A stretch of 64,000 bases of DNA from Alphaproteobacteria bacterium (GTDB lineage Bacteria; Pseudomonadota; Alphaproteobacteria; CAAHEQ01; UBA3637): assembly GCA_045118155.1 (NCBI GenBank), contig JBGUXS010000078.1, positions 443-64,442 on the forward strand, read 5' to 3'. Both the position numbers and the translations under genes were made by a program. This document shows positions 2,143 to 29,874 of the stretch, piece by piece (the first letter of the stretch is position 1; every line of letters begins with the position of its first letter). The notes under the pieces are model-generated. The model was not told the origin of the DNA and searched no databases. It saw only the letters and a program-made list of their open reading frames with translations.

Positions 2143-2198
2143 TATTTTACTAGAAAAAAGCTTTTATTACGTGTATAATATATCCGAAAGGGTTTGGT

Positions 2199-3341
2199 AT
2201 GCAGAAAAAACGCACCTTTATTATTGGACTTATTTGGGGGCTAATCTTCTTTTGGTGGCTGCACAATTTTTTTTACTTGAATTGGTATTTTCGGTTTTAC
2301 AGTCCCAAAGCTTGGGTTTATTTACTTCATGAATTCAAGTACGGTTGGCGGGTACGGGCCGTTTCCGATTGGATCTTTATTTTTACCCTTATTTTCGCAT
2401 TACCTCTGTTTTTCTGGGGGTGGTATCTATGCTTAAAAATCAAATGGTTGGCTCTTTTTAAATGGATAAAAAAACAATTTTTAAAACTTACCAACAAAAA
2501 ATCAACTGTTGTAAAAAAACAAATGAAGTTAGCCGCTAAAAAAAGTGTGCAAAAAGAACGCCCCCCTGCCCTTGCAACCCCCAAAGTAACTAGTCCCGAA
2601 AAGAAAATGCAAAAAATGCCATCTTCTGCCATCAAAAAAGAAGAAATCGATTTAGATTTTTCTGCTAAAGAAGAATTTTTGAAAGAAGAAAACATTCAAA
2701 CGGCACCTCCTGCCAAAGAACATCGGGCCCCGGATCCACCAAAAGGGGGACCTTCTTTCCTATTTGAAGATGATGATATCCCGCAACAAAACAATGATGT
2801 TCGGGCCGACACACTGTTGTCTGAAATAAAAATGCCAGAACGAGAACGAACACAAGAAAATATCCCAGATATTATTCACGCGCATGGCTTTAAGCCCATC
2901 ACGGCCATTGTGCATCCAGATATTTCTTTTGCGGCCGTTTCTTCAGATACCCTTTTGGTTGCTTTTGTGGATGAAGAACCAGGAGATTGGCTAGCCGATG
3001 AAGAAGATTTTGAAGGGGAAGACCCCTTGTGGTTTTCAGAAAGTTTTCATCGGGTTTCCCCAGTTTTTAAACTATTAAAAGTTGCTAAAAAAATCAGGGC
3101 TCAGTTAGAAAATCAAGGACTTTCTCATAAAGTAATTCCTTACTTAATTGAAAAAATGGGAAATATTATTAACGTAGAAGATATGCAAGAAACGTGGAAA
3201 GAACTGGGGGTCATTGTCTGCCGAACAGATGTTGGGGGGGATGAAACATTACCCACAGTAGAAGCTTCTTTCCCGCAAGCAAAAGATGTTGCAGAAGCTG
3301 CTGATTTAGATATAATAAAAGAAATTTTAAAAAAGTTATAG
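2199..3341 (+). CDS. Hypothetical membrane-anchored protein (N-terminal TM helices, Lys-rich linker, acidic C-terminal domain); first gene of the virD4 operon
   Basis: 380-aa ORF preceded by a TATAAT box near 2172. It ends 10 nt before virD4. No recognisable domain. Confidence 0.5.
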   Translation: MQKKRTFIIGLIWGLIFFWWLHNFFYLNWYFRFYSPKAWVYLLHEFKYGWRVRAVSDWIFIFTLIFALPLFFWGWYLCLKIKWLALFKWIKKQFLKLTNKKSTVVKKQMKLAAKKSVQKERPPALATPKVTSPEKKMQKMPSSAIKKEEIDLDFSAKEEFLKEENIQTAPPAKEHRAPDPPKGGPSFLFEDDDIPQQNNDVRADTLLSEIKMPERERTQENIPDIIHAHGFKPITAIVHPDISFAAVSSDTLLVAFVDEEPGDWLADEEDFEGEDPLWFSESFHRVSPVFKLLKVAKKIRAQLENQGLSHKVIPYLIEKMGNIINVEDMQETWKELGVIVCRTDVGGDETLPTVEASFPQAKDVAEAADLDIIKEILKKL

Positions 3342-3350
3342 GGGGAAAAG

Positions 3351-5522
3351 TTGGGCGCCTCTGACGCGATGTACACCGAACGTAAAAAATATACGTACTA
3401 TGTGGCAGCTATCGTAGTACTGGCTCTTTTTGTATCTTGGATAATGCTGTTAATTACAATTCCTTTACAAGCTTTTATCCGTCAAGGGTTAGATATTGAA
3501 GCTTGGAATTACAGTGTTTCCTTTTGGACACATGCTTGGCATCCAAAAGTCATTTTTCAAGTCCTCAATAGTTGGTTTGATTCCCTAAAAACGTTAAAAA
3601 ATCCCCATTGGACTTTATATTTACCCTTTTTATCCTTTTTTATTGGCTTTATCGTTTTAGTGATAGGGCTAAAAAAGAATCCCTTTGAATACACACCAAA
3701 TATTTTTGGGAATGGACGTTTAGCCACTTATGCTGATGTCAAAAAAATGAAATTATTTACTGGGTTCTGCATCGTTTTGGGACGTTTTAAAGGCAAGTTA
3801 TTAAAAATGCCAGAAACCTTAGCGGCCTTAGTTGTTGCGCCACCGGGGACTGGTAAAACCGCTGGGGTGGTGATTCCCACCATTTTTGAATCCCCAGGAT
3901 TGAGTATTATTGTAAACGACCCTAAACCAGAATTATGTTATACCACAACCGGATATCGGGCACAACAAGGGCCTGTGTTCGTTATTAACTGGGGGGCCGA
4001 TGATGAACCAGAAAAAGGGATTTTCTTCCCTAGTTGGAATCCACTTTCTGCTTCATGCTTACCAGCACCAGGTCCCGCCAGAGATATGTACATAGACTCT
4101 ATGGTGGCTATTTTGGTAGAAGTTAATGAAAAAGATCCTCACTGGGGGAAAACTGGGCGAAATGCTATGTCTGGTTTTTTGAACTTTATCGCCAGTAAAT
4201 GTGAACGGGCACTTGCTAACGATTACTTTACTTCACGTTTAATGGACGATTTATTTGATGATGAAGACGCGGCCGTTTTAGAAACATACTATGCGGATAT
4301 GAACGATCCTGATACAGGGTCTGCTTTACAGGCATTAAAAAATGGGTCTATGACACGGGAATCTTACGTCCCTATCGGTACATGGGCGGGGCTACCTTCT
4401 GTTTGGCAAGGAAAAGAACCTTGTATTGCTATGATTTTGGACTGGCTGACGGAAATGCAAATGAAAATCAATGCCGATATTAAACGCCGTATGGATGAAG
4501 GGGATCAAATGGCGGCCATGGCAGACCCCATGCGGGATCTATTGGAAAGTGCCATCAGTGAAGCAGCCCGCTATGGCTATGCCAGACGTTCTGTCACAGA
4601 ACTCAATCAATTATCCGCCACACCGGATAAGGAACGGGGGTCTATTTTATCCACGGCCCTTTCTGGGATCAGTATTTTTAAAAACTCGGCAGTGCGTTCT
4701 AGAACTAAGTTCAGTGACATTACTTTCCGTGATTTACGTGGGATGCGTGATCCTATTACAGGGGAACAAAAACCTATTTCGGTTTATCTATCCGTTAACC
4801 AGGTAGATGCCCAAGCCTTAAATGTCATTACTGGGATTTTTGTTGAATTGATGAGCAGTTTCTTAATCGCGAACCCCCCAAATTTTGTTGGGGCAGGCGG
4901 GAAAAAGGCGGGACCATTTCCTGTTTTATTTGTGCTTGACGAGTTTCCACAAATGCCAAAATTGGATGCTGTGAAAAACGGGCCTGCCGTAGGGCGGGGA
5001 CAGAAAGTTTCTTATTTGCTCATTGGGCAGGATCTTGGACAGATTTCTGGTAAATACGGGAAAGATGATTTGGAAACAATCATTACAACAACAGCCGCTA
5101 AAGTCATTCTTTCTCAAAACAACGAACAAACCGCTGAACGTTTTACAAAAATGATTGGGACTAAAACGATTCAAGTAACAAGTTCTAGCCGAACTGAAGG
5201 GATTTCCAACCAAAATAACCCCTTTGCGGCAAACGTAAGCCGTTCCTACCAAAGCTCAAACGTGGTCCAAGTATCTGATATGATGAGCTTAGATATGCTT
5301 AAACAATACGTTTTATTCCAAGGATATCTAAACCATCCTATCTTAGCGGATGCCCCTCGTTATTACTTAGATAAAGTCATGCAAAAGAAAGCGGCCATTC
5401 CCCCTTCCCCATTTGTTCCGTATTGGATTGTAGCGCAACGGGAAGATACCGATTTAGAAACATTAAAAGCTTTGATGCAAGAGGAATTAGCAGATTTGGA
5501 TATTATCATAGAGGATGAATAA
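3351..5522 (+). CDS. virD4: Type IV secretion coupling protein VirD4/TraG
   Basis: 723 aa. N-terminal TM helices, Walker A VVAPPGTGKTAGVVIPT and Walker B LFVLDEFPQMP. TTG start with a GGGGG Shine-Dalgarno; an alternative ATG lies at 3369. Confidence 0.85.
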   Translation: MGASDAMYTERKKYTYYVAAIVVLALFVSWIMLLITIPLQAFIRQGLDIEAWNYSVSFWTHAWHPKVIFQVLNSWFDSLKTLKNPHWTLYLPFLSFFIGFIVLVIGLKKNPFEYTPNIFGNGRLATYADVKKMKLFTGFCIVLGRFKGKLLKMPETLAALVVAPPGTGKTAGVVIPTIFESPGLSIIVNDPKPELCYTTTGYRAQQGPVFVINWGADDEPEKGIFFPSWNPLSASCLPAPGPARDMYIDSMVAILVEVNEKDPHWGKTGRNAMSGFLNFIASKCERALANDYFTSRLMDDLFDDEDAAVLETYYADMNDPDTGSALQALKNGSMTRESYVPIGTWAGLPSVWQGKEPCIAMILDWLTEMQMKINADIKRRMDEGDQMAAMADPMRDLLESAISEAARYGYARRSVTELNQLSATPDKERGSILSTALSGISIFKNSAVRSRTKFSDITFRDLRGMRDPITGEQKPISVYLSVNQVDAQALNVITGIFVELMSSFLIANPPNFVGAGGKKAGPFPVLFVLDEFPQMPKLDAVKNGPAVGRGQKVSYLLIGQDLGQISGKYGKDDLETIITTTAAKVILSQNNEQTAERFTKMIGTKTIQVTSSSRTEGISNQNNPFAANVSRSYQSSNVVQVSDMMSLDMLKQYVLFQGYLNHPILADAPRYYLDKVMQKKAAIPPSPFVPYWIVAQREDTDLETLKALMQEELADLDIIIEDE

Positions 5523-6064
5523 TGACGGAAGATTTTAAGTTTGAAGATGGTCTAGGACAGGATTATTGGATTCGTGAATTTCATAAAATTCCCTTTCCAG
5601 GAATGGAATTGTTTGAAGTAACTTTTTTTAGACGTATAGAAGGGGCCTATGTGGATAAACATCAGCGCTTTAGAGAAATGGCCGTTGATTTTCTAAAAGA
5701 TTTAGGGAAAGAGGAAGAAGAACTTTATGCTTTTGAATTTTCTGAGGCCGAAGTCGCTTTGATTAAAAAAGGTCGTCTACCAGAAAATTATACTGTCCAT
5801 TTAAAATATCCTTTAGAATACGGTTGTGCATTGATCCCAGAACAATTTGTTTTGATGCCTATTGCCCCTTATTATCGGGATATTAATACTTATATCTTCA
5901 GACAACTTATAACCGATGAAGGAATTAAAAAGCCCCATCACCTTTATGTTCCCACACCAACAGGGCGTATTTATAAACCTTATTCTGGGGATGCAAGTGG
6001 CAGCGGTGGGAAAAGTAATACTTCCCAAATGGCGGCTATGTTTAACCAGGGGCGGGGGCGTTAA
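5522..6064 (+). CDS. Hypothetical 180-aa protein translationally coupled to virD4, with a Gly/Ser-rich, Arg-terminated tail
   Basis: Its ATG overlaps the virD4 stop (TAATG). C-terminus GDASGSGGKSNTSQMAAMFNQGRGR. No known domain recognised. Confidence 0.45.
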   Translation: MTEDFKFEDGLGQDYWIREFHKIPFPGMELFEVTFFRRIEGAYVDKHQRFREMAVDFLKDLGKEEEELYAFEFSEAEVALIKKGRLPENYTVHLKYPLEYGCALIPEQFVLMPIAPYYRDINTYIFRQLITDEGIKKPHHLYVPTPTGRIYKPYSGDASGSGGKSNTSQMAAMFNQGRGR

Positions 6065-6065
6065 T

Positions 6066-6524
6066 ATGAAATTAATACATGTTGTTTTAAAAGCTATTTA
6101 TAAAGATGCCGCTGTTGTTTTTAATCCTGTGGCTTTGACTGATGTTCAAAAGGCCTCTTTTGAAATTGTAAAAAATAAAGGGATTAAAATTCCTAATGAT
6201 TATGCTGCCTTTTTAACAGAAGTTGATGGATTATCCTGGAATGGATTGTATCTTTTTTCCTTAAATGAAAAGGAACGTCAAGATGGCGCTTTTGTGCACC
6301 CTGGCATTCTACAAACATACCATAAGGGCTTAAAAAATCCGATTTTTAAAAACAGGCTTTTATTAGGATACGGCCCTGAAGAAATCATTACATATCATGC
6401 GGGAAAAAAAGAATATCAAATCCTAAGTCAATATGATTACAGAATCCTAGTACGGCTTCCCCGCTTCTTTGATGTACTGTATCACTATACCCATGCTTTA
6501 TTTGAGGATGCCCCTAAGGACTAG
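6066..6524 (+). CDS. SUKH (SMI1/KNR4)-like immunity-type protein
   Basis: 152 aa. The segment IPNDYAAFLTEVDGLSWNGLYLFSLNE resembles the SUKH-1 core. It starts 2 nt after the previous stop. Confidence 0.45.
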   Translation: MKLIHVVLKAIYKDAAVVFNPVALTDVQKASFEIVKNKGIKIPNDYAAFLTEVDGLSWNGLYLFSLNEKERQDGAFVHPGILQTYHKGLKNPIFKNRLLLGYGPEEIITYHAGKKEYQILSQYDYRILVRLPRFFDVLYHYTHALFEDAPKD

Positions 6525-6931
6525 GACAAATCTTGCTTAACATGTGGCGTTTGCAAAAGTTCTTCAATGTGATCGGCCACTTCTAAGGAAGTATCTTTTT
6601 TAAAGATTAAATCTGGCACAATTCTTAACCGGATTTCTTTTCCAATGCGGTAACGAAAAAGGCCTTTATGTGCATTTAACAACTTCACTTGTTCATTCAC
6701 ATCAATTCCCCCGATACCATTTACAAAAACACTTGCGTAACTCAAATCTGGGGAAATGTTAGCTTGTGTGATTTGTAAAGCCCTTGGTTTTAAACCTGAA
6801 ATAAACAAATCCTCTTTAACCAACATCTGTCCAATTAGACGCCGAATGCTTTCTGAAACCCGAAGTTGCCGTTGTGATTGTTCTGACGTTTTCATAGAAG
6901 CTATTATACCTTTTTTTCTTGTTCCTTTCAA
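6521..6931 (-). CDS. rbfA: Ribosome-binding factor A
   Basis: RbfA-like core; the SESIRRLIGQMLVKEDL motif region is present. The true start may be the internal Met at about 6895. Confidence 0.8.
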   Translation of the reverse strand: MKGTRKKGIIASMKTSEQSQRQLRVSESIRRLIGQMLVKEDLFISGLKPRALQITQANISPDLSYASVFVNGIGGIDVNEQVKLLNAHKGLFRYRIGKEIRLRIVPDLIFKKDTSLEVADHIEELLQTPHVKQDLS

Positions 6932-6939
6932 GAATCTTT

Positions 6940-7680
6940 TTAGAACAAGTATCTAAGCCCCACCAAAACCGTCTGACTTTTATTTTCAACAGAAATCGGA
7001 GTTTTAGAAACTTTATCTGTCAATGAAATACGGCCTGGATCCATATAACGGTACCCTACATCTAAATCCAAATCCCGACCTAAATGTGTCGTGACACCGG
7101 CGGCTACATTCCAAGCCATTTTATACTTCCATGTTTCATGATTATAATGGTTCGTTCCTTTGTCTGATTGAACACGAATACGGGATTGGCTGACCCCGAT
7201 TCCTCCCCCAATATAAGGGCTAAAAGTATAAGAAGGGAACAAATCATAATAGGCATTCAAAAAATAAGTATTCATTTTAATATTGCTTGCCCGAACCCGT
7301 GTTCCATCATCCAACTTAAATACCGCATCCCTTTTCCCATGAGAATTATAGCTACCTTCAAGTTCCGTCCGCACATTTCCAAGCATTGTTTTGACTTGAA
7401 CCCCCAAAGCCCCGCTTAATTCCATCAGCTCATCCTTTTTTTTCTGAGATTGCCCCCCAATAGCGGGTTCAAAATCCCGTCCTTTATAGCCGATTTTTGC
7501 CTCAACATAAACCCGTTGACTAGGTTCCAAAGAATTATCTTTCAGACTCTCTTCCATATATTTGTTCTTATCATCCATCACGTAAAAATCAGTATCTCCC
7601 GCATAAGAGGCATAGTAGACACCAGCTTGTGCGTAATAACTTGACAAAACAAAAAAAGTAAAAATAAGCTTCTTCATCAT
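6940..7680 (-). CDS. Small outer-membrane beta-barrel protein (OmpA/Opa-like porin family)
   Basis: Signal peptide MMKKLIFTFFVLSSYYAQA. Alternating amphipathic strands rich in aromatic residues and Gly. The C-terminal residue is Phe (LVGLRYLF). Confidence 0.7.
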   Translation of the reverse strand: MMKKLIFTFFVLSSYYAQAGVYYASYAGDTDFYVMDDKNKYMEESLKDNSLEPSQRVYVEAKIGYKGRDFEPAIGGQSQKKKDELMELSGALGVQVKTMLGNVRTELEGSYNSHGKRDAVFKLDDGTRVRASNIKMNTYFLNAYYDLFPSYTFSPYIGGGIGVSQSRIRVQSDKGTNHYNHETWKYKMAWNVAAGVTTHLGRDLDLDVGYRYMDPGRISLTDKVSKTPISVENKSQTVLVGLRYLF

Positions 7681-7698
7681 TTCATCCTCCTAAACCAA

Positions 7699-9510
7699 TT
7701 AGTCCCGTGTTACTTCGGGAAGGGTAAAATTATTTTCATCAAAAACACAGTATGTTTCAACCCGGGCGCTTAACGTATTGTCCCCCAAAGTTCCCCCTGT
7801 AAAATTCGTGGAACCCGCCCCCGTAACATAGCCAACTTCTATCCCCCATACTCTGGCAATATCCGCTTCGGTTTCTGCCTTTGCTTTATGAACATTATTA
7901 ACAGCCACAGCCACCGTATAGCGCGACACATTTGCATTTGTGACATTTGTGGTAGATCCATTTGTTACACCTTCAAAACTGTTCAAAACGTCCTTTCCGG
8001 TTGTTCGGATCGGGGTAACCACCAAAGCGGCCTTATATCCGGCCGGGCATGCTGGCGTTGTCACATTTGCCCGCAAGCAATTGTTCGTATATCCACTACA
8101 GTTCCCTAAATTAGCTTCTGTCGTTAATTCGGTAATAGATTTTGAAACATAATTCGGCAAGATATCACTTAATCTCGCCCCACCACGAGAAGCCAACTTA
8201 ACATCATTCATCACAGACGTATAAGCTGGATCTACCTGATAATGATCATACGTTTCTGATTCATTAGCAGCTTGAGCATCCACAAATTCAACGGATGAAT
8301 CAATACCTTTTGCAGACACGACTGCATTTTCTACTAACTGACCATCTGCATCATAAGCATTCAGCGTAACTTTCCCCTTGGAAGATCCATCTGTGGCTTC
8401 TTCAGCTTCGGCCTTTAAGACATCACGTCCGGCACTATCTCTGGTAATAATCTGCCCATTAGCATTGACAATAACCCGACGTTTGCCCGTGGCATCATAA
8501 ACGGTCACTGCCCGCTTGTCATTATCCACAGGATCAGTGGAAATAACGGCCGTTGAAACAAAGGCTTGAATTGTTTCCCCATCGTTCACGGGATCATCCA
8601 TAGAAACCGCTTGACGTCCTACATGCAAATCATTGCGGACATAAACATTCCCCGGGGTTCCTGCCAATCCTTCATCCGTTCCGTTTTCAAGATGTTCTGC
8701 CCCTACCCAAAATAAGGGGGCACATTCTTCCCCTGCATCCAAAATTGTATAACCGGTTGCATCTTTTCTAAAGCAATTCGTATTTCCTTCGCCAATAGAA
8801 AAATAGCTCCAAGCATGCAAGTTTTTGAAAGCGGCTTCATCTTCTAAAGAAGAAAAGAGTGCCCCTTCATCAAATCCAGTAAATGCAACATAAGACGGGC
8901 TTACCACAGGTTCCATCATCAAAGATGCCCCTTCTAATTCCCAAGTTCCCATGGTGCCTACAAAATTATCCCCTTGGACGATACCCCCATCAGCCCCAAT
9001 CAAGGCAGCGATACTAGCCGCCCGCTTTAAATTCCATGTTCCTTGCGGCAGTGCCGATGCTTTAGGTAAGATAACTCCATAAAAAGAGGTCCCAACTTTT
9101 GCCCCTTCCGTATTTTCTAAATTTTTCCCAAAAAGGTAAAAATTGTATTTTTCAGCCGTACTTGATGTCAAAACATCCCCTGTGTACGTGTTATAGGTCA
9201 CTGGTAAGTATGTTGCCACATTTTTCCACAACGTGTTATATGAACAATTGGAAGTTTCTGTTCCAGACAATGCACAAACCCCACCACCGGCTGTGGCTAA
9301 TTCTTCAAGTTGCCTATGTTGCGTTTGGATAAAAGAGGAAAAAGCTTCCTTCATCGTACGCATTTCGGTCGCTACATTAACATTGGCTAGTTCCCGATTA
9401 CGTTGTGCCACTTGCCTATACAAAACAGGTCCCAACACCGCCAAGATCCCTAAGACGGCAATAGCTTCTATCATAATAGACCCAGATTGGGTTTTTACAG
9501 CTTTTTTCAT
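7699..9510 (-). CDS. Large (603 aa) type IV pilin-like / pseudopilin-like protein with a class III signal peptide
   Basis: N-terminus MKKAVKTQSG|SIMIEAIAVLGILAVLGPVLY has a basic leader, Gly at -1, Glu at +5 and a hydrophobic helix followed by Pro/Tyr. The Gly/Thr/Asn/Val-rich body has C-terminal Cys pairs. Confidence 0.55.
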   Translation of the reverse strand: MKKAVKTQSGSIMIEAIAVLGILAVLGPVLYRQVAQRNRELANVNVATEMRTMKEAFSSFIQTQHRQLEELATAGGGVCALSGTETSNCSYNTLWKNVATYLPVTYNTYTGDVLTSSTAEKYNFYLFGKNLENTEGAKVGTSFYGVILPKASALPQGTWNLKRAASIAALIGADGGIVQGDNFVGTMGTWELEGASLMMEPVVSPSYVAFTGFDEGALFSSLEDEAAFKNLHAWSYFSIGEGNTNCFRKDATGYTILDAGEECAPLFWVGAEHLENGTDEGLAGTPGNVYVRNDLHVGRQAVSMDDPVNDGETIQAFVSTAVISTDPVDNDKRAVTVYDATGKRRVIVNANGQIITRDSAGRDVLKAEAEEATDGSSKGKVTLNAYDADGQLVENAVVSAKGIDSSVEFVDAQAANESETYDHYQVDPAYTSVMNDVKLASRGGARLSDILPNYVSKSITELTTEANLGNCSGYTNNCLRANVTTPACPAGYKAALVVTPIRTTGKDVLNSFEGVTNGSTTNVTNANVSRYTVAVAVNNVHKAKAETEADIARVWGIEVGYVTGAGSTNFTGGTLGDNTLSARVETYCVFDENNFTLPEVTRD

Positions 9511-14668: not shown

Positions 14669-15059
14669 GGGCCACCAATGAACGTACCCGTTCTACCATA
14701 GAAAAAAAACCATTCCGACGCGTGGGGGATAAATGATCTTCTAGACCTAAATCCTTAAAAATCCGTTCTATATCCAATTCCCGAATAAAAGCAGCTGTTT
14801 GCCCATTAATTAGGGAAAGTAAAATAGCCTCTAACCCCCGTACAATAAAGGCATCGCTATCGGCAACAAAAAAGAACTTATCCCCTTTTTGCTGAACAGT
14901 AATCCACACTTGTGATTGGCATCCTTGGACCTTATGGGCTTCTGTTTTATCTTCTTCTGGCATCGGGGGTAAACTCTGTCCTAATTCAATTAGGTATTGG
15001 TATTTTTCTTCCCAATCCGTAAATAAAGAAAAATTATCAATTAATTCCTGTTCTGTCAT
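14661..15059 (-). CDS. sufE: SufE-like cysteine desulfuration/sulfur-acceptor protein
   Basis: 132 aa with a SufE-like fold signature including a conserved Cys (GCQSQVW). Confidence 0.7.
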   Translation of the reverse strand: MTEQELIDNFSLFTDWEEKYQYLIELGQSLPPMPEEDKTEAHKVQGCQSQVWITVQQKGDKFFFVADSDAFIVRGLEAILLSLINGQTAAFIRELDIERIFKDLGLEDHLSPTRRNGFFSMVERVRSLVAHA

Positions 15060-16462
15060 TCAATGTTTTTTAATCCTTCTAGTGTTAATTTTACCTTTAT
15101 TATATCAACACTGCGATTTTTTTCATCAAAAATACGCTTATCCTCTTGTAAAAAAGGACGTAAGTCTTTTAATAATCCAGCATCTTCAGTAGCTTGACAC
15201 GCTGAATTTTGTAAAAATTCTTTTTCTTGAGGGGTTGTTTGAACCGCCACATTTTGTAAATAGGTTTGCATCAAAGTACATTGTTCTTCATCAATCGGTT
15301 TGGCTGGGGGAGAAATAGCATCAAAATTCCGAATAAGAAATTCAATATCTCCAACGGGTTTTTCCTTTTCAATCTGTCCTGTAAAATGCACATCTATAAC
15401 CGCTTGTACACTTTCCAAACTTCCTTTAACATCCAAATCAGCCCCTTTTAGCAGCCCCCAAGAAAAATCTTTAGAAAGCAATTGTTCTACTAATATTTCA
15501 CGATCAAACTTTTTGGCTTTGATAACTAATTTTCCCTTTTCTGGGATAAACCCTTTGGTCGGGACATTCCCTATACACGCGAATGTTAGGTTAATTTCAG
15601 CTTCCTCCCCCTTAAATTCTACTTGCCCTTCTACCTGCGTTAAAATAATCTTTCTGGGGTAAACGGGAAATACTAAATCCGCCTGTGGTATTTCAAATTC
15701 AATTTTTCCTGTATCCGCCAATAACCATGCATTATGTAAAATAGGGGCTAATCCCTGAAACCGTGCTTTTTCCGTTAAAGAAGCCACCGTCCCTTGCACT
15801 TCTTTCCCCGTAAATGTCAACCCCAAAAGGGAGGCTTTTTGTTCAATAACGGGAACATGCCCCAAAAAAGAAAACATATATTTGCCGTTTGCTTCATCCA
15901 CTTTCAATTGCCATTCGGGGCGCGTCAGGTGTACATGGCTAGCACTCCACCGATCTTCGGCAATCAAATCCCAATACGGGTGCCATTTAAATTCATTTTG
16001 CCACTTTTCAACATAGAAAAAATTGGGTTCAAATACCGCGGTTGCAAAACCTTCTAGTTGTTCTTTTGGGGGAAAGTGTCCCCGATATAACGTCGTCCCT
16101 TCTAATTGCCCATCTGGGGTCAATAATACCCCTTGTGTAGGGAAAGTCATTTCATCCGGTGTTTCTTTAAGTGGCATCCAAACGGTCAGAACTTTTTTCT
16201 TCAAGTCTAAATCATTCTTCACAGATGCTTCTGGCAATATTAAACTTGCTTGATCGGCTCGTTGTTGCAAAACAGCCCCCGAAATCCCCAATGCCTTTAA
16301 CTTCGCCCTTAGGGCCTTAGCCAAAGTATCATGATCCGGTCGTGTCAACACAGTGGATGGGGTTACGTAAGACATAGCATTAGGGAAAAAACGCGTTAAC
16401 ACCGCGCCTTGCAAAGCAACTGCCCCTACAAGAGCCAGACGTCCCAATAATTTTGCTAACAT
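15056..16462 (-). CDS. Hypothetical secreted/periplasmic protein (468 aa)
   Basis: N-terminal signal-like segment LALVGAVALQGAV. No recognisable domain. It is co-directional with sufE-truB. Confidence 0.45.
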   Translation of the reverse strand: MLAKLLGRLALVGAVALQGAVLTRFFPNAMSYVTPSTVLTRPDHDTLAKALRAKLKALGISGAVLQQRADQASLILPEASVKNDLDLKKKVLTVWMPLKETPDEMTFPTQGVLLTPDGQLEGTTLYRGHFPPKEQLEGFATAVFEPNFFYVEKWQNEFKWHPYWDLIAEDRWSASHVHLTRPEWQLKVDEANGKYMFSFLGHVPVIEQKASLLGLTFTGKEVQGTVASLTEKARFQGLAPILHNAWLLADTGKIEFEIPQADLVFPVYPRKIILTQVEGQVEFKGEEAEINLTFACIGNVPTKGFIPEKGKLVIKAKKFDREILVEQLLSKDFSWGLLKGADLDVKGSLESVQAVIDVHFTGQIEKEKPVGDIEFLIRNFDAISPPAKPIDEEQCTLMQTYLQNVAVQTTPQEKEFLQNSACQATEDAGLLKDLRPFLQEDKRIFDEKNRSVDIIKVKLTLEGLKNIE

Positions 16463-27459: not shown

Positions 27460-27758
27460 TGCCACCATTTTTAAGCCCTGATGAAGATTCGTGTCTTTTA
27501 CACATTTTATTGGTTCCTAATGCTAAAGAAAATAAGATTTATGGTCTTTTTAATGAACGATTAAAACTTTATATTTCTGCCCCAGCTGTGGACGGAAAAG
27601 CGAATAAAGCTTTAATTAAATACCTGGCTGATCTCTTTAACCTAAAAAAAAATCAGATTTCCTTGATACAAGGGGAAAGATCCCATCAAAAAACAGTACG
27701 ACTAGATGCCCCTATTGACCACATCTGTACTTGTTTAAGTCAACATATTTCCGTGTAA
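27456..27758 (+). CDS. yggU: DUF167/YggU family protein
   Basis: 100 aa with LKLYISAPAVDGKANKALIKYLADLF, typical of YggU. It overlaps the amiC stop by 4 nt. Confidence 0.65.
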   Translation: MMPPFLSPDEDSCLLHILLVPNAKENKIYGLFNERLKLYISAPAVDGKANKALIKYLADLFNLKKNQISLIQGERSHQKTVRLDAPIDHICTCLSQHISV

Positions 27759-28805
27759 AATACGTGTAATCTCGCTTCCTTGCATCAAAGAAAAACCTAA
27801 GGCTTGGGCTTGTTGTATTTCTTGAGGGGTTTGAATATCAAACAAGATAATTTTTTCTTTAGGATAATTCAAAGTAGCAGCCCATTTCATCTGTTGACTA
27901 TTAATCTTTAGGTAATGCATCGGGATTTTATCCCATGCTAAATAGGATATTTCCTCCGGAATGCGTAATAAAAAGAGGGATTGTTGATAACAAGGTATTT
28001 TTTGAATACTTTGCCATAAATCCCGTTCCCAAAGAAAATCTGATAAACTTATTTCATAAGAAATACCTTGATGTTGATACAATTGGTGCATTTCCTGATA
28101 AACGGGTTGGGTTAAAAGATAAGGACTCGCAGAAAAAACTCCTCCTTGTGTTTTGGGCAATTCCTTTTTTAAAATTTTTGTATACAGCGCATTCTTAAAG
28201 GCCCTTTTCAAATATGTATCAGAATCCAATATCACCTTTGGAAATAGAACTTGACGGACATCAATATCTTTACAAAAAACACTGGTAAATACAGGAACCA
28301 TCTCGGTTAAATCATGAACCTGACAAATGCATTGATGCCGTGTTAAATGTGAAACATCCGCTGTTTTTAGCTCTGATAAAATATGTGTGAGAGTTGGGGT
28401 ATCCAAGGGCAATGAAGGAATTTTTTGAAGCACTTTTAAATCAGAAAAATCTGCTGTTGGGGTTAGCTCTTGATGATTAATTTTATGGATCAAAGCATTA
28501 AAATCTGTGATTAAATTAAAAAATGATAATTTATGTTCTTGGAAAAAGGATTTTTCCAGCCCCTTTAATTTCAAGGAAAGCAACATCATATCCTGTAATT
28601 TATTATGGGCAAAAAAGGCAACGCTATCCCCTTCGCTTAAAAAGAACAATTTCGTTTGATATGTCTGTTCAAAAGAACTCAAAAAATGCAAAAGAACCTT
28701 TTTTTTCTCATCTTCTTTAGGTAAAGGAATATAAAGAGCATGCCCTTTAAATGTTCTTTTTTCAAGATATTTGAGATAGTCAAAAACACTATTATACCGC
28801 ATCAT
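27735..28805 (-). CDS. Hypothetical protein with a degenerate EAL-like C-terminal half (catalytic residues not evident)
   Basis: 356 aa. The C-terminus ...KIILFDIQTPQEIQQAQALGFSLMQGSEI resembles the EAL end motif (AEGVET...QG). No DDFGTG or EAL motif is present. Confidence 0.4.
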   Translation of the reverse strand: MMRYNSVFDYLKYLEKRTFKGHALYIPLPKEDEKKKVLLHFLSSFEQTYQTKLFFLSEGDSVAFFAHNKLQDMMLLSLKLKGLEKSFFQEHKLSFFNLITDFNALIHKINHQELTPTADFSDLKVLQKIPSLPLDTPTLTHILSELKTADVSHLTRHQCICQVHDLTEMVPVFTSVFCKDIDVRQVLFPKVILDSDTYLKRAFKNALYTKILKKELPKTQGGVFSASPYLLTQPVYQEMHQLYQHQGISYEISLSDFLWERDLWQSIQKIPCYQQSLFLLRIPEEISYLAWDKIPMHYLKINSQQMKWAATLNYPKEKIILFDIQTPQEIQQAQALGFSLMQGSEITRILHGNMLT

Positions 28806-29874
28806 ATCCCCTTAAATGTTGCACACACACGCATTGTGATGCTTGATGCGGGATCGCCCCCATTTGCATACACGTTTGTAAAGCACAATCTCCCCCATAT
28901 GGACACGTTTTTTTTCGAGAAGCCGCATGAATCAAATCAATAAAATCACCTTGAAAAAAGGTATATGGGGAAGACAGAATTTGAGTTAATTTTTCTTGCG
29001 TATCCACTCCTGTTACAAAAACAGGAACATGATTGATTGATTGTGTTAAACAAACTTCTACGGGAAGAAGTAAAAAATCAGCTTCTAATAAATCAAAACG
29101 ATAAAAGGCCGTTTCTGCAGTAATGCCCCCAATACCTAACCGATACTGTTTTCCTGGACGAGTTAGGGCTTCCTTATACAGATTTTTATTTAACAAGACT
29201 TCTGCAATATCTAAAATAATCCAAACTGGGTCATTATTTTCAATCCAAGCACTTTCCAACGTTCCTTGCACCATCAAAGGCAATGTCGTTTGTTTAAACA
29301 GCTCTTTATTTGGGTGTTGCAATAATTGTTTCTGTATTTTCTGAACTAACCACATTGGAAGCTGATCCATATTGTTTTTTAAGGTCCATGTATATCCCCA
29401 CAGAGAGTTGCTCCCCTTTTGATAAATTACCCGCCTAAACCAACTATTTTTTTCGGGAATATCTTTTAAAAAAGCCTCATAATCAACCTCTTGATTCGTT
29501 TGCTTTTTAGCTATCTGAATCAGGGACAAAACCCCCATCAAATCCTGTGGTAAATGGAACAAGCGTACATTTTCTTCTTTTTTTCCTGTTTGAATTTGAA
29601 AAAATGTTTGAATTTGGCGCATCACATCCACAACTTGATGTTCATCAAGATCAACCCCTATTAATAAACGATCTTGTTGTTCAAATGTAAAAAGCCGACA
29701 ATATTCATACGCTAATAACGGTTCTAATAAATGTTCTATGACGTGCATCAACCTTTCGGCCCCTGGCAGACCTAATAATTGACTTGTCCCTATCCAAAGG
29801 ACAACCGACGGTGTTTCTAAAGCAGCGACACGCTTTATTGTTTCTAAGGCCAGTTGTTCTTGTGTCTCATACAT
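28792..29874 (-). CDS. Hypothetical protein with a degenerate EAL-like C-terminal half and a Cys-rich tail
   Basis: 360 aa. The segment ...YRLGIGGITAETAFYRFDLLEADFLLLP...VFVTGVDTQEKLTQILSSPYTFFQGDFI is EAL-like without catalytic residues. The tail reads CPYGGDC...C.C. Confidence 0.4.
   Translation of the reverse strand: MYETQEQLALETIKRVAALETPSVVLWIGTSQLLGLPGAERLMHVIEHLLEPLLAYEYCRLFTFEQQDRLLIGVDLDEHQVVDVMRQIQTFFQIQTGKKEENVRLFHLPQDLMGVLSLIQIAKKQTNQEVDYEAFLKDIPEKNSWFRRVIYQKGSNSLWGYTWTLKNNMDQLPMWLVQKIQKQLLQHPNKELFKQTTLPLMVQGTLESAWIENNDPVWIILDIAEVLLNKNLYKEALTRPGKQYRLGIGGITAETAFYRFDLLEADFLLLPVEVCLTQSINHVPVFVTGVDTQEKLTQILSSPYTFFQGDFIDLIHAASRKKTCPYGGDCALQTCMQMGAIPHQASQCVCVQHLRGYDAV

Follow-up and report, generated by a model that had tools for sequence, protein, structure and literature searches.

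A four-gene operon encoding a VirD4-type coupling protein and three partners, designated A380, C180 and D152, lies near one end of a 64,000-nucleotide stretch (hereafter the window) of contig JBGUXS010000078.1 from an uncultured gut member of the Alphaproteobacteria (assembly GCA_045118155.1). We see about even chances that the operon specifies a lineage-specific coupling-protein module, in which C180 would be a dedicated VirD4 client held by D152 rather than a conventional DNase toxin, and A380 would be a co-receptor. What a type IV secretion system (T4SS) exports is determined by its coupling protein, and to our knowledge little has been learned about client recognition outside Legionella (DotL-DotM-IcmSW), Helicobacter and the XVIPCD of Xanthomonas. 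The arrangement described here suggests a mode of cargo recruitment to type IV secretion that has not been described. In the literature we came across no VirD4 operon in which a NERD-fold membrane partner is combined with an HNH/SUKH pair that lacks the catalytic base, and searches on SUKH with YrhA, on RF32 with T4SS and on NERD with coupling proteins gave nothing useful.

An initial annotation, made from the DNA sequence alone, had described four tightly coupled open reading frames (ORFs) that include virD4, and all four lie where it placed them, with junctions that overlap or nearly do so. The TAG stop codon of the A380 gene is followed by a spacer of 9 nucleotides (nt) that includes GGGGGA and then by the TTG start codon of virD4; the stop codon of virD4 and the start codon of the C180 gene overlap as TAATG; and a single base separates the TAA stop codon of the C180 gene from the ATG of the D152 gene, the 3' end of which lies head-on against rbfA. 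A scan of one genome per species yielded 357 relatives of the window VirD4, and the best 80 loci were analysed, nearly all of them from uncultured Alphaproteobacteria of human, ruminant, rabbit and horse guts. The synteny on which the annotation's interpretation depended is borne out, in that the order A380-VirD4-C180-D152 is kept in 75 of these 80 loci, with C180-to-D152 spacers that range from -4 to +12 nt in nearly all loci. The four genes are a translationally coupled unit and not chance ORFs, since 75 of the 80 genomes, each standing for a species, have the unit and since the non-synonymous and synonymous differences from a 98%-identical strain number 1:5 for A380, 2:24 for VirD4 and 0:4 for D152. 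None of the genes that flank the unit in the window is kept beside it in the relatives. Across the loci, VirD4 is 59-74% identical and the partner proteins 23-52%.

C180 matches no Pfam or NCBIfam family. An alignment of 19 homologues displays the motif LPENYTVHLKYPLEYGGxIDFNNMVFMQxxPFHDxIH, and a profile search against 1.84 billion cluster representatives returned 528 relatives, 241 of them at an E value of 1e-10 or better. The distant relatives are C-terminal domains of RHS, pretoxin-HINT, pretoxin-TG, MuF_C and Mu-portal proteins (P0230 for RHS, P0236 for PT-HINT, P0283 for PT-TG, P0207 for MuF_C and P0253 for Portal_Mu are examples that carry such trafficking regions), and the homology of C180 to these C-terminal toxin domains extends over ~150 amino acids (aa) with E values down to 1e-17. 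The Pfam HNH family (PF01844) matches distant homologues on the same stretch, at 17-24 bits against a cut-off of 21.4. Sequence-profile searches of the PDB with the C180 alignment found nothing significant, and only the profile of standalone relatives with an intact HH pair (HH-type, see below) reached HNH structures, namely Cas8f-HNH (7e-7) and the pyocin AP41 DNase (0.005). Because of the RHS, HINT, TG and MuF relatives and of the matches to Pfam HNH, Cas8f-HNH and pyocin AP41, C180, in which the beta-beta-alpha metal-finger fold is present, is to be classified by its predicted descent as a polymorphic-toxin HNH DNase domain.

The active site of this domain has been altered throughout the clade that is linked to VirD4. 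The general base of colicin and pyocin DNases is the latter His of the "HH" pair (His103 of colicin E9, three residues before a Pro), and His102, His127 and His131 of E9 are metal ligands (bioRxiv 10.1101/2020.04.29.068437). The motif of the toxin-type relatives, VHHKLPLDDGGTNDFxNLVLIKNxPYHKVIT, aligns without gaps with the VirD4-linked motif, VH[LIVM]KYPLEYGGxIDFNNMVxMQxxPFHDxIH. At the position of the general base, HH is present in 72 toxin-type relatives, whereas 75 of 75 VirD4-linked orthologues have H[LIVMQ], and the window protein has Leu94. Of 76 orthologues, 75 retain the metal triad (His93, His118 and His122) as well as Asn108. The sole exception is the C180 of the window, which has Gln108, Tyr118 and Asn122, as well as Cys102, where the other 75 have N, H, H and G. 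These substitutions are no sequencing error, since the 98%-identical strain shares them. Because the general-base His is replaced in all orthologues, the VirD4-linked clade has probably lost conventional hydrolysis and its members are probably not conventional DNases. The copy in the window, the most degenerate of those compared, appears to belong to a lineage in which the protein has decayed further, with loss of the Asn and of both C-terminal His residues and with a shorter tail. A separate sub-family of small standalone HNH proteins (131-203 aa; P0191, P0196, P0199, P0204, P0206, P0211, P0212, P0229, P0238, P0256, P0266 and P0271) is also without the general-base His, having H followed by I, L or M; its members have no tail and end in FEGKIYHD.

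The partner encoded downstream, D152, had been described as SUKH-like, and this assignment is probable at the level of the superfamily, with scores below curated thresholds. D152 matches the NCBIfam YrhA family, whose members we take to belong to the SUKH superfamily, at 7.3e-13 (48.7 bits against a cut-off of 55), and the Pfam families SUKH_6 and SMI1_KNR4 at 0.0065 and 0.015, respectively, both under threshold. Among 41 D152 orthologues the only Pfam families matched were those of the SUKH clan (SMI1_KNR4 in 22, SUKH_6 in 21 and SUKH_5 in 15), with a best E value of 9e-5. The sole match of a D152 alignment in a profile search of the PDB was 2icg, presumably a SUKH structure, with an E value of 0.69 that is not significant. 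Contigs that are free of VirD4 (L098/L099, L122-L126 and L130-L134) also have a D152-like gene immediately after this HNH domain, and the pairing of C180 with D152 is therefore ancestral and of the toxin/immunity kind. Judged from these matches and neighbourhoods, D152 is a putative SUKH-superfamily (YrhA-like) protein, presumably the one-time immunity protein of C180 and now its partner, and the predicted toxin/immunity ancestry of the pair is real.

What the VirD4-linked proteins have gained is a tail. The annotation had noted a Gly/Ser-rich, Arg-terminated tail, which is indeed read at the C-terminus of C180 and is basic in the orthologues (median net charge +4). The consensus GSGGK(N/G)K(Q/H)DRSxxAG(F/Y)xxxAFxxIAxKxMPGR stands at the end of ~65 of the 76 orthologues. 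After the nuclease fold there are 25 disordered residues in the window C180, where the tail has a predicted local distance difference test (pLDDT) value below 50, and 36-40 in the orthologues, whereas RHS-type domains end ~25 residues past the motif without a tail. A terminal Arg is present in 23 of 44 long-tailed members of the family as against 3 of 69 short-tailed ones. From these comparisons the basic, Arg-terminated tail appears specific to standalone members outside the RHS proteins. It is a plausible candidate for a recognition or secretion signal by virtue of its charge complementarity with the acidic domain of A380 and the acidic C-terminus of VirD4.

Many relatives of C180 are also extended at the N-terminus. 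The gaps of 100-800 base pairs (bp) between virD4 and the C180 gene in relatives could have held a hidden extra gene, a notion that we rejected when the gaps proved to be low-complexity N-terminal extensions of C180, starting 5-45 nt past the virD4 stop codon in most of 18 loci examined. The extensions carry PQPYA-type repeats and have conserved starts (MWDWSGSK... or ...SLISWEDLFPEYA...); they are disordered and present in most species, the window C180 being a minimal version. In the loci L052-L075 they consist of Pro/Gln/Tyr-rich tandem repeats (PQPYAPQ and similar) that follow a conserved MWDWSG(S/T)K…RDPR motif.

Basic, Arg-terminated tails were seen as well on some HH-type relatives. A gut contig of 47% GC (L095/L096, positions 6505-8525) has three tandem HNH genes, for proteins of 246, 192 and 208 aa in which the catalytic HH is kept and which end in …KQNKGR, …KIQKTR and …MTAARR; it has no virD4 within 8 kb, and a D152-like gene lies ~6 kb off on the other strand. 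A general linkage of HH-type, Arg-tailed relatives to VirD4 was considered and rejected, there being neither VirD4 nor A380 within 8 kb in any of 57 metagenomic loci.

The coupling protein itself is readily assigned to its superfamily. The Pfam family T4SS-DNA_transf (PF02534) matches it at 1.2e-54 (186 bits; gathering cut-off 20.1), TraG-D_C (PF12696) at 8e-23 (81 bits) and TrwB_AAD_bind (PF10412) at 3e-18 (66 bits), and its translation contains a Walker A P-loop, PPGTGKT, and a hydrophobic N-terminal membrane anchor, YYVAAIVVLALFVSWIMLLITIP. It falls far under all NCBIfam equivalog cut-offs (128 bits against 728 for PRK13897 and 91 against 681 for PRK13850), and the top NCBIfam model is the CD1115-family, at 146 bits against a cut-off of 250. 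The assignment is therefore to the VirD4/TraG/TrwB superfamily only and not to an Agrobacterium- or Rickettsia-type equivalog. The C-terminus is acidic, with a net charge of -7 over the last 50 aa in the window and a median of -5 over the last 40 residues in the orthologues. Some loci (L004, L005, L009, L021, L042 and L047) have an extra ORF of 145-155 aa between A380 and VirD4 that resembles a stand-alone VirD4 N-terminal membrane domain, and in L051, L052 and L058 an ORF of 316-321 aa at this place has a similar membrane domain and an extra C-terminal domain.

The composition of A380 agrees with what the annotation had read from the translation, namely N-terminal transmembrane (TM) helices, a Lys-rich linker and an acidic C-terminal domain: the net charges of these parts are +8, +13 (over 53 aa) and -16, with a median of -14 for the C-terminal domain in the orthologues. 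An AlphaFold2 model (pLDDT 80.5) has long N-terminal helices (residues 2-29 and 55-80), a disordered region (111-198) and a compact C-terminal domain, in which a restriction-endonuclease-like alpha-beta-beta-beta-alpha-beta core is present. On this model A380 is predicted to be a bitopic inner-membrane protein with its acidic domain facing the cytoplasm. A search found 501 homologues; none of the 120 listed has a Pfam domain, one has been named a NERD-domain protein by NCBI, and a sub-threshold match to Pfam NERD was found in 11 of 34 family members. With the catalytic motif positions mapped onto the sequence by eye, position 243 is Asp in 55 of 76 orthologues and Ser in the window, and the second motif is D258-x-E/Q260 (E in 57 of 76), with no Lys. 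The C-terminal domain probably has a NERD/PD-(D/E)xK-like nuclease fold and is probably non-catalytic. Because a block at residues 262-288 (GDWLADEExFNxExPLWFSExxHRxSP) and a GxIINAEDM motif are invariant, the conserved loop suggests a binding surface. The fold of DotM was looked for in A380 and not found. A second A380 paralogue in tandem just upstream of A380 is confined to ~17 loci of a more distant sub-clade, which include L052, L056, L058-L061, L063-L066, L068, L071, L072, L074 and L075.

The history of the unit can be read in part from the loci that depart from the common order. In three (L041, L050 and L051) the contigs end too early to judge the presence of C180 and D152, whereas L078 and L079 have space 3' of virD4 and encode A380 and VirD4 without the pair. 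In L142, which represents a lineage further removed, virD4 is accompanied by an A380-like gene and by one for a TM-only A380 paralogue (163 aa), and C180 and D152 are likewise absent. From the presence of A380 and VirD4 without the pair in these loci, A380 is the older, constant partner of VirD4, and the C180-D152 pair is a later addition that can be lost, a dispensability that would be expected of cargo. The annotation had offered, as an alternative, that the genes encode novel coupling-protein accessory factors, and this description fits A380, which accompanies VirD4 even where the pair is missing. Upstream of the A380-virD4 pair of L142, on the same strand (positions 2395-5121), are genes for two highly charged proteins of 313 and 561 aa without a Pfam match, the larger of which ends in NVIKQRG; both may be substrates.

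C180 differs from its neighbours in rate as well, being 30-45% identical across loci where VirD4 is 60-70% identical. In the comparison with the 98%-identical strain its count of non-synonymous to synonymous differences is 4:2, as against 3:33 for A380, VirD4 and D152 combined (Fisher p = 0.004, on small numbers), so that the window C180 may be under relaxed constraint or have a raised ratio of non-synonymous to synonymous rates (dN/dS), as judged from six substitutions. A comparison with a 64%-identical relative was left unused, synonymous sites being saturated. In the organism of the window, C180 has decayed further, while A380, VirD4 and D152 stay constrained.

The explanation that we favour, in which C180 is a dedicated client of VirD4, would run as follows. 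VirD4 is co-translated with A380 and with C180 and D152, a toxin/immunity pair that the operon of this clade would have captured. In the HNH protein the general base has been lost and a basic, disordered tail has been acquired, with Gly-Arg at its end. Within the producer, D152 would keep hold of C180 as a chaperone derived from an immunity protein (by analogy with VirE1/VirE2), the tail of C180 would dock on the acidic domain of A380 and/or on the acidic C-terminus of VirD4, and VirD4 would feed C180 to a scattered VirB-type channel. We liken C180 to dedicated cargo because it evolves fast, is dispensable in some lineages and is rich in disorder. A more far-reaching version, to which we assign a clear minority chance, is that the whole clade has domesticated a colicin-like HNH toxin and its SUKH partner into a non-nucleolytic translocated client, which may bind DNA or act otherwise, and its chaperone; that in a novel type of coupling complex a membrane protein with an acidic, dead NERD domain reads a new C-terminal signal (hydrophobic-x-x-hydrophobic-A-x-K/R-x-x-x-G-R); and that the His-retaining, tandem, Arg-ended paralogues such as those of L095 are active members of an effector family.

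Several observations weigh against the client explanation. The idea that the tail is recognized by a receptor draws solely on charge and conservation, and a hidden Markov model (HMM) search for further ORFs with such a tail found none, either in the window or, in the 80 loci, out to 8 kb from VirD4, so that a secretion signal shared by several proteins of one genome is hypothetical. Neither the SUKH assignment of D152 nor the NERD assignment of A380 reaches its curated threshold. The strict conservation of three His residues and an Asn in C180 could reflect residual or altered catalysis instead of a purely structural metal site, and antagonistic systems do not usually have just one effector that is conserved throughout.

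Two alternatives retain the pair as a functional part of the system and seem to us equally unlikely. The annotation had proposed an effector and immunity module delivered or gated by VirD4, and the classic form of this idea is that C180 is an active DNase injected by the T4SS into competitors while D152 protects the producer. The toxin/immunity descent and the linkage to VirD4 stand. They are joined by the recurrent SUKH neighbour, the basic C-terminal tail, the near-universal metal triad and Asn (75 of 76 orthologues), the dispensability of the pair (absent in L078/L079 and L142), and the precedent of HNH nucleases established as type IV effectors in Stenotrophomonas and Lysobacter. A conventional nuclease toxin is nevertheless unlikely with the general-base His replaced in every VirD4-linked orthologue and, in the window, with the Asn and two metal-ligand His residues missing too. 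The likeness that the annotation drew to the Xanthomonas effector/immunity pairs is doubtful, because a domain like the XVIPCD cannot fit within the tail and is absent from C180, and because the pair is single-copy and fixed in position across ~75 species, neither polymorphic nor part of a variable arsenal of effectors. The other possibility is that the disabled HNH/SUKH heterodimer is not translocated and is a structural adaptor, gate or regulator of VirD4-A380 that recruits other substrates, analogous to IcmS/IcmW or CagZ. What speaks for such a role is the constant gene order and close translational coupling that the pair shares with VirD4 in 75 genomes, the loss of the catalytic base, the retention of a constrained D152 even where C180 is degenerate, and the earlier reuse of inactive HNH toxin domains, as in teneurin (PMC3482391). 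The pair can be no obligatory subunit, however, since it is missing where A380 and VirD4 remain; C180 evolves much faster than VirD4, and the long disordered N-terminal repeats and disordered basic tail of C180 resemble cargo and not a scaffold.

Two further explanations are far less probable. Coupling-protein genes usually adjoin DNA-processing genes in conjugative systems, A380 and C180 both have nuclease folds, and the colicin-like metal site kept in C180 could still bind DNA, so that these two proteins might be thought to process or pilot DNA for export or uptake by the T4SS, in place of a relaxase. We consider this highly improbable: a complete canonical active site exists in neither protein, the SUKH partner and the RHS and MuF relatives indicate a toxin origin, and no relaxase, oriT-like repeat or mobile-element gene was found near the operon, the flanks of which are housekeeping genes. 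It is scarcely credible that the three partner genes have nothing to do with virD4 and form a toxin-antitoxin cassette, or one for defence against phages, that came to lie beside it by chance, even if NERD, HNH and SUKH domains are each known from conflict systems. The four genes travel together although their neighbours differ between loci, start and stop codons overlap those of virD4, and the tail is specific to the VirD4-linked clade. PADLOC gave no match for A380, C180 or D152 and only a weak P-loop match of VirD4 to mad8, and on this result the defence-system interpretation was rejected.

Comparisons with known systems bring out what is particular to the client module that we favour. The motif of C180 is near-collinear with those of colicin E9/E7 and pyocin S-type DNases: His102, His127 and His131 of E9 match His93, His118 and His122 of the C180 family with spacings of 25 and 4 residues, the structural Asn corresponds too, the beta-beta-alpha fold is shared and in both cases a cognate inhibitor gene lies immediately downstream. 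The colicin enzymes differ in retaining the general base (E9 His103), which is replaced (H[LIVMQ]) in VirD4-linked C180, and in having an Im-type four-helix inhibitor where C180 has a SUKH partner; C180 is without receptor-binding and translocation domains and has the basic C-terminal tail in addition. In polymorphic toxins with RHS, pretoxin-HINT, pretoxin-TG or MuF regions (Zhang et al. 2012, PMC3482391), the C-terminal domain is homologous to C180, and in unrelated contigs this domain is followed by a D152-like gene, whereas C180 stands alone inside a coupling-protein operon, with no N-terminal trafficking domain, no catalytic His and an extra tail.

Among secretion systems, TfdA (PMC11253643) and LtdD (PMC13600162) are HNH nucleases that are delivered by VirB/D4 systems through an XVIPCD and are active DNases. 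They belong to the bacteria-killing X-Tfe/X-Tfi pairs of Xanthomonadales and resemble C180 in concept, combining an N-terminal HNH-superfamily domain with a C-terminal VirD4-recognition element, for which the tail is the candidate in C180. The X-Tfe have a folded XVIPCD, of ~100 aa or more, and are active and strain-variable; the C180 tail comprises 25-40 disordered residues, and the protein is conserved, embedded in the operon and without its base. In the Dot/Icm system of Legionella, in which the DotL complex comprises DotM, DotN, IcmS/IcmW and LvgA and DotM binds charged signals, the gene order likewise places a membrane-anchored partner comparable to A380 (~380 aa, with N-terminal TM helices and a cytoplasmic domain) just upstream of the coupling ATPase, and small cytoplasmic partners are present. 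VirE1-VirE2 of Agrobacterium and VbhT-VbhA of Bartonella, in which an adjacent small partner keeps the client inactive or secretion-competent and the C-terminal signal of the client is positively charged, are analogous in mechanism only, there being no relation of sequence or fold to C180-D152. The alphaproteobacterial rvh T4SS of rickettsiae likewise has its genes scattered among housekeeping genes. Its usual layout has virD4 after virB8-11, and the virD4 of the window differs in standing alone with three partners that are unrelated to known rvh effectors. The rickettsial proteins RalF and RARP-2 are recognized by RvhD4 through their C-terminal tails, and for basal lineages a role of the rvh T4SS in killing related microbes has been proposed (PMC11077975). 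Teneurin offers a case in which an inactive C-terminal HNH toxin domain (Tox-GHH) was put to new use (PMC3482391), but it is a eukaryotic extracellular signalling protein with neither an immunity partner nor a secretion ATPase.

The operon offers a compact and well-conserved test case for the recruitment of clients by coupling proteins, with four genes, clear motifs and natural loss variants in at least 75 species. Two nuclease folds have seemingly been put to non-catalytic use around VirD4, and C180-D152 would be a toxin/immunity pair in transition from a weapon to some other use. Should the Gly-Arg tail prove to be a secretion signal, effectors could be predicted from it across these gut and rumen Alphaproteobacteria, a large and uncultured group, and if C180 is truly inactive, it would represent a bacterial case of a reused toxin domain comparable to that of teneurin.

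The positions of the operon, of the protein segments discussed above and of the other type IV secretion genes are collected in the table below.

Table. Coordinates in the window of the four-gene virD4 operon, of segments of its products and of related features
Feature	Coordinates	Strand	Remarks
Promoter-like site upstream of operon	2151..2179	+	TAGAAA-17-TATAAT; consensus scan, 10/12 matches
A380 gene	2199..3341	+	380 aa
A380 aa 1-82			Two TM helices with conserved Trp residues
A380 aa 83-135			Lys-rich linker
A380 aa 136-215			Disordered variable region
A380 aa 216-380	2844..3338	+	Acidic NERD-like cytoplasmic domain; from charge and fold
virD4	3351..5522	+	723 aa; TTG start, GGGGGA ribosome-binding site
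C180 gene	5522..6064	+	180 aa
C180 aa 87-128	5780..5905	+	Degenerate H-N-H motif (PENYTVH93L94KYPLEYGCALIPEQ108FVLMPIAPYY118RDIN122...); from alignment
C180 aa 156-180	5987..6061	+	C-terminal tail, GDASGSGGKSNTSQMAAMFNQGRGR; candidate VirD4/A380 recognition signal
D152 gene	6066..6524	+	152 aa
virB3-like ORF and virB4	53497..56237	+	Sole other type IV secretion genes found in window; Pfam, ORF overlap

The promoter-like site is weak evidence only, as shuffled sequence gave more such sites than the actual region did. In 25 of the 80 loci an ORF of 115 aa, ribbon-helix-helix-like by eye, lies on the same strand ~160 bp upstream of A380 (for example at L010:974-1321) and could encode a regulator of the operon; it is not found in the window, where a gene for an RNHCP-domain protein on the opposite strand takes its place. 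No further copies of C180, D152 or A380 were found elsewhere in the window.

The separation of virD4 from virB8-11, which the annotation had pointed out, is confirmed as far as the scan reaches: no virB8-11 gene was found by Pfam or NCBIfam among the 36 larger ORFs of the window that were scanned, and virB2 and virB6 were not found either in ORF scans of the 64 kb. The virB4 gene (53802-56237, 811 aa) matches Pfam CagE_TrbE_VirB at 5e-12, and its start is overlapped by the virB3-like membrane ORF of 102 aa; the two genes lie alone between the housekeeping genes gatC/gatA and acpS and presumably form part of one scattered apparatus with VirD4. The secretion genes of the window look more scattered than those of the rickettsial rvh layout, the remainder of the window being made up of housekeeping genes (bamA, lpxD, fabZ, lpxA, mreBCD, pbp2, rodA, dnaE, pnp, rne, nrdD and others). 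Three ORFs of 356, 360 and 468 aa on the minus strand (27735-29874 and 15056-16462) have no Pfam match at 1e-5. Also on the minus strand, a 603-aa protein (7699-9510) has a type IV pilin-like N-terminus (GSIMIEAIAVLGILAVLGPVLY) with a weak ComGG-type match (E 0.0026), and its gene is adjoined by that for a 246-aa outer-membrane beta-barrel (6940-7680) that weakly resembles the rickettsial adhesin Adr (5.8e-12, a score under the cut-off).

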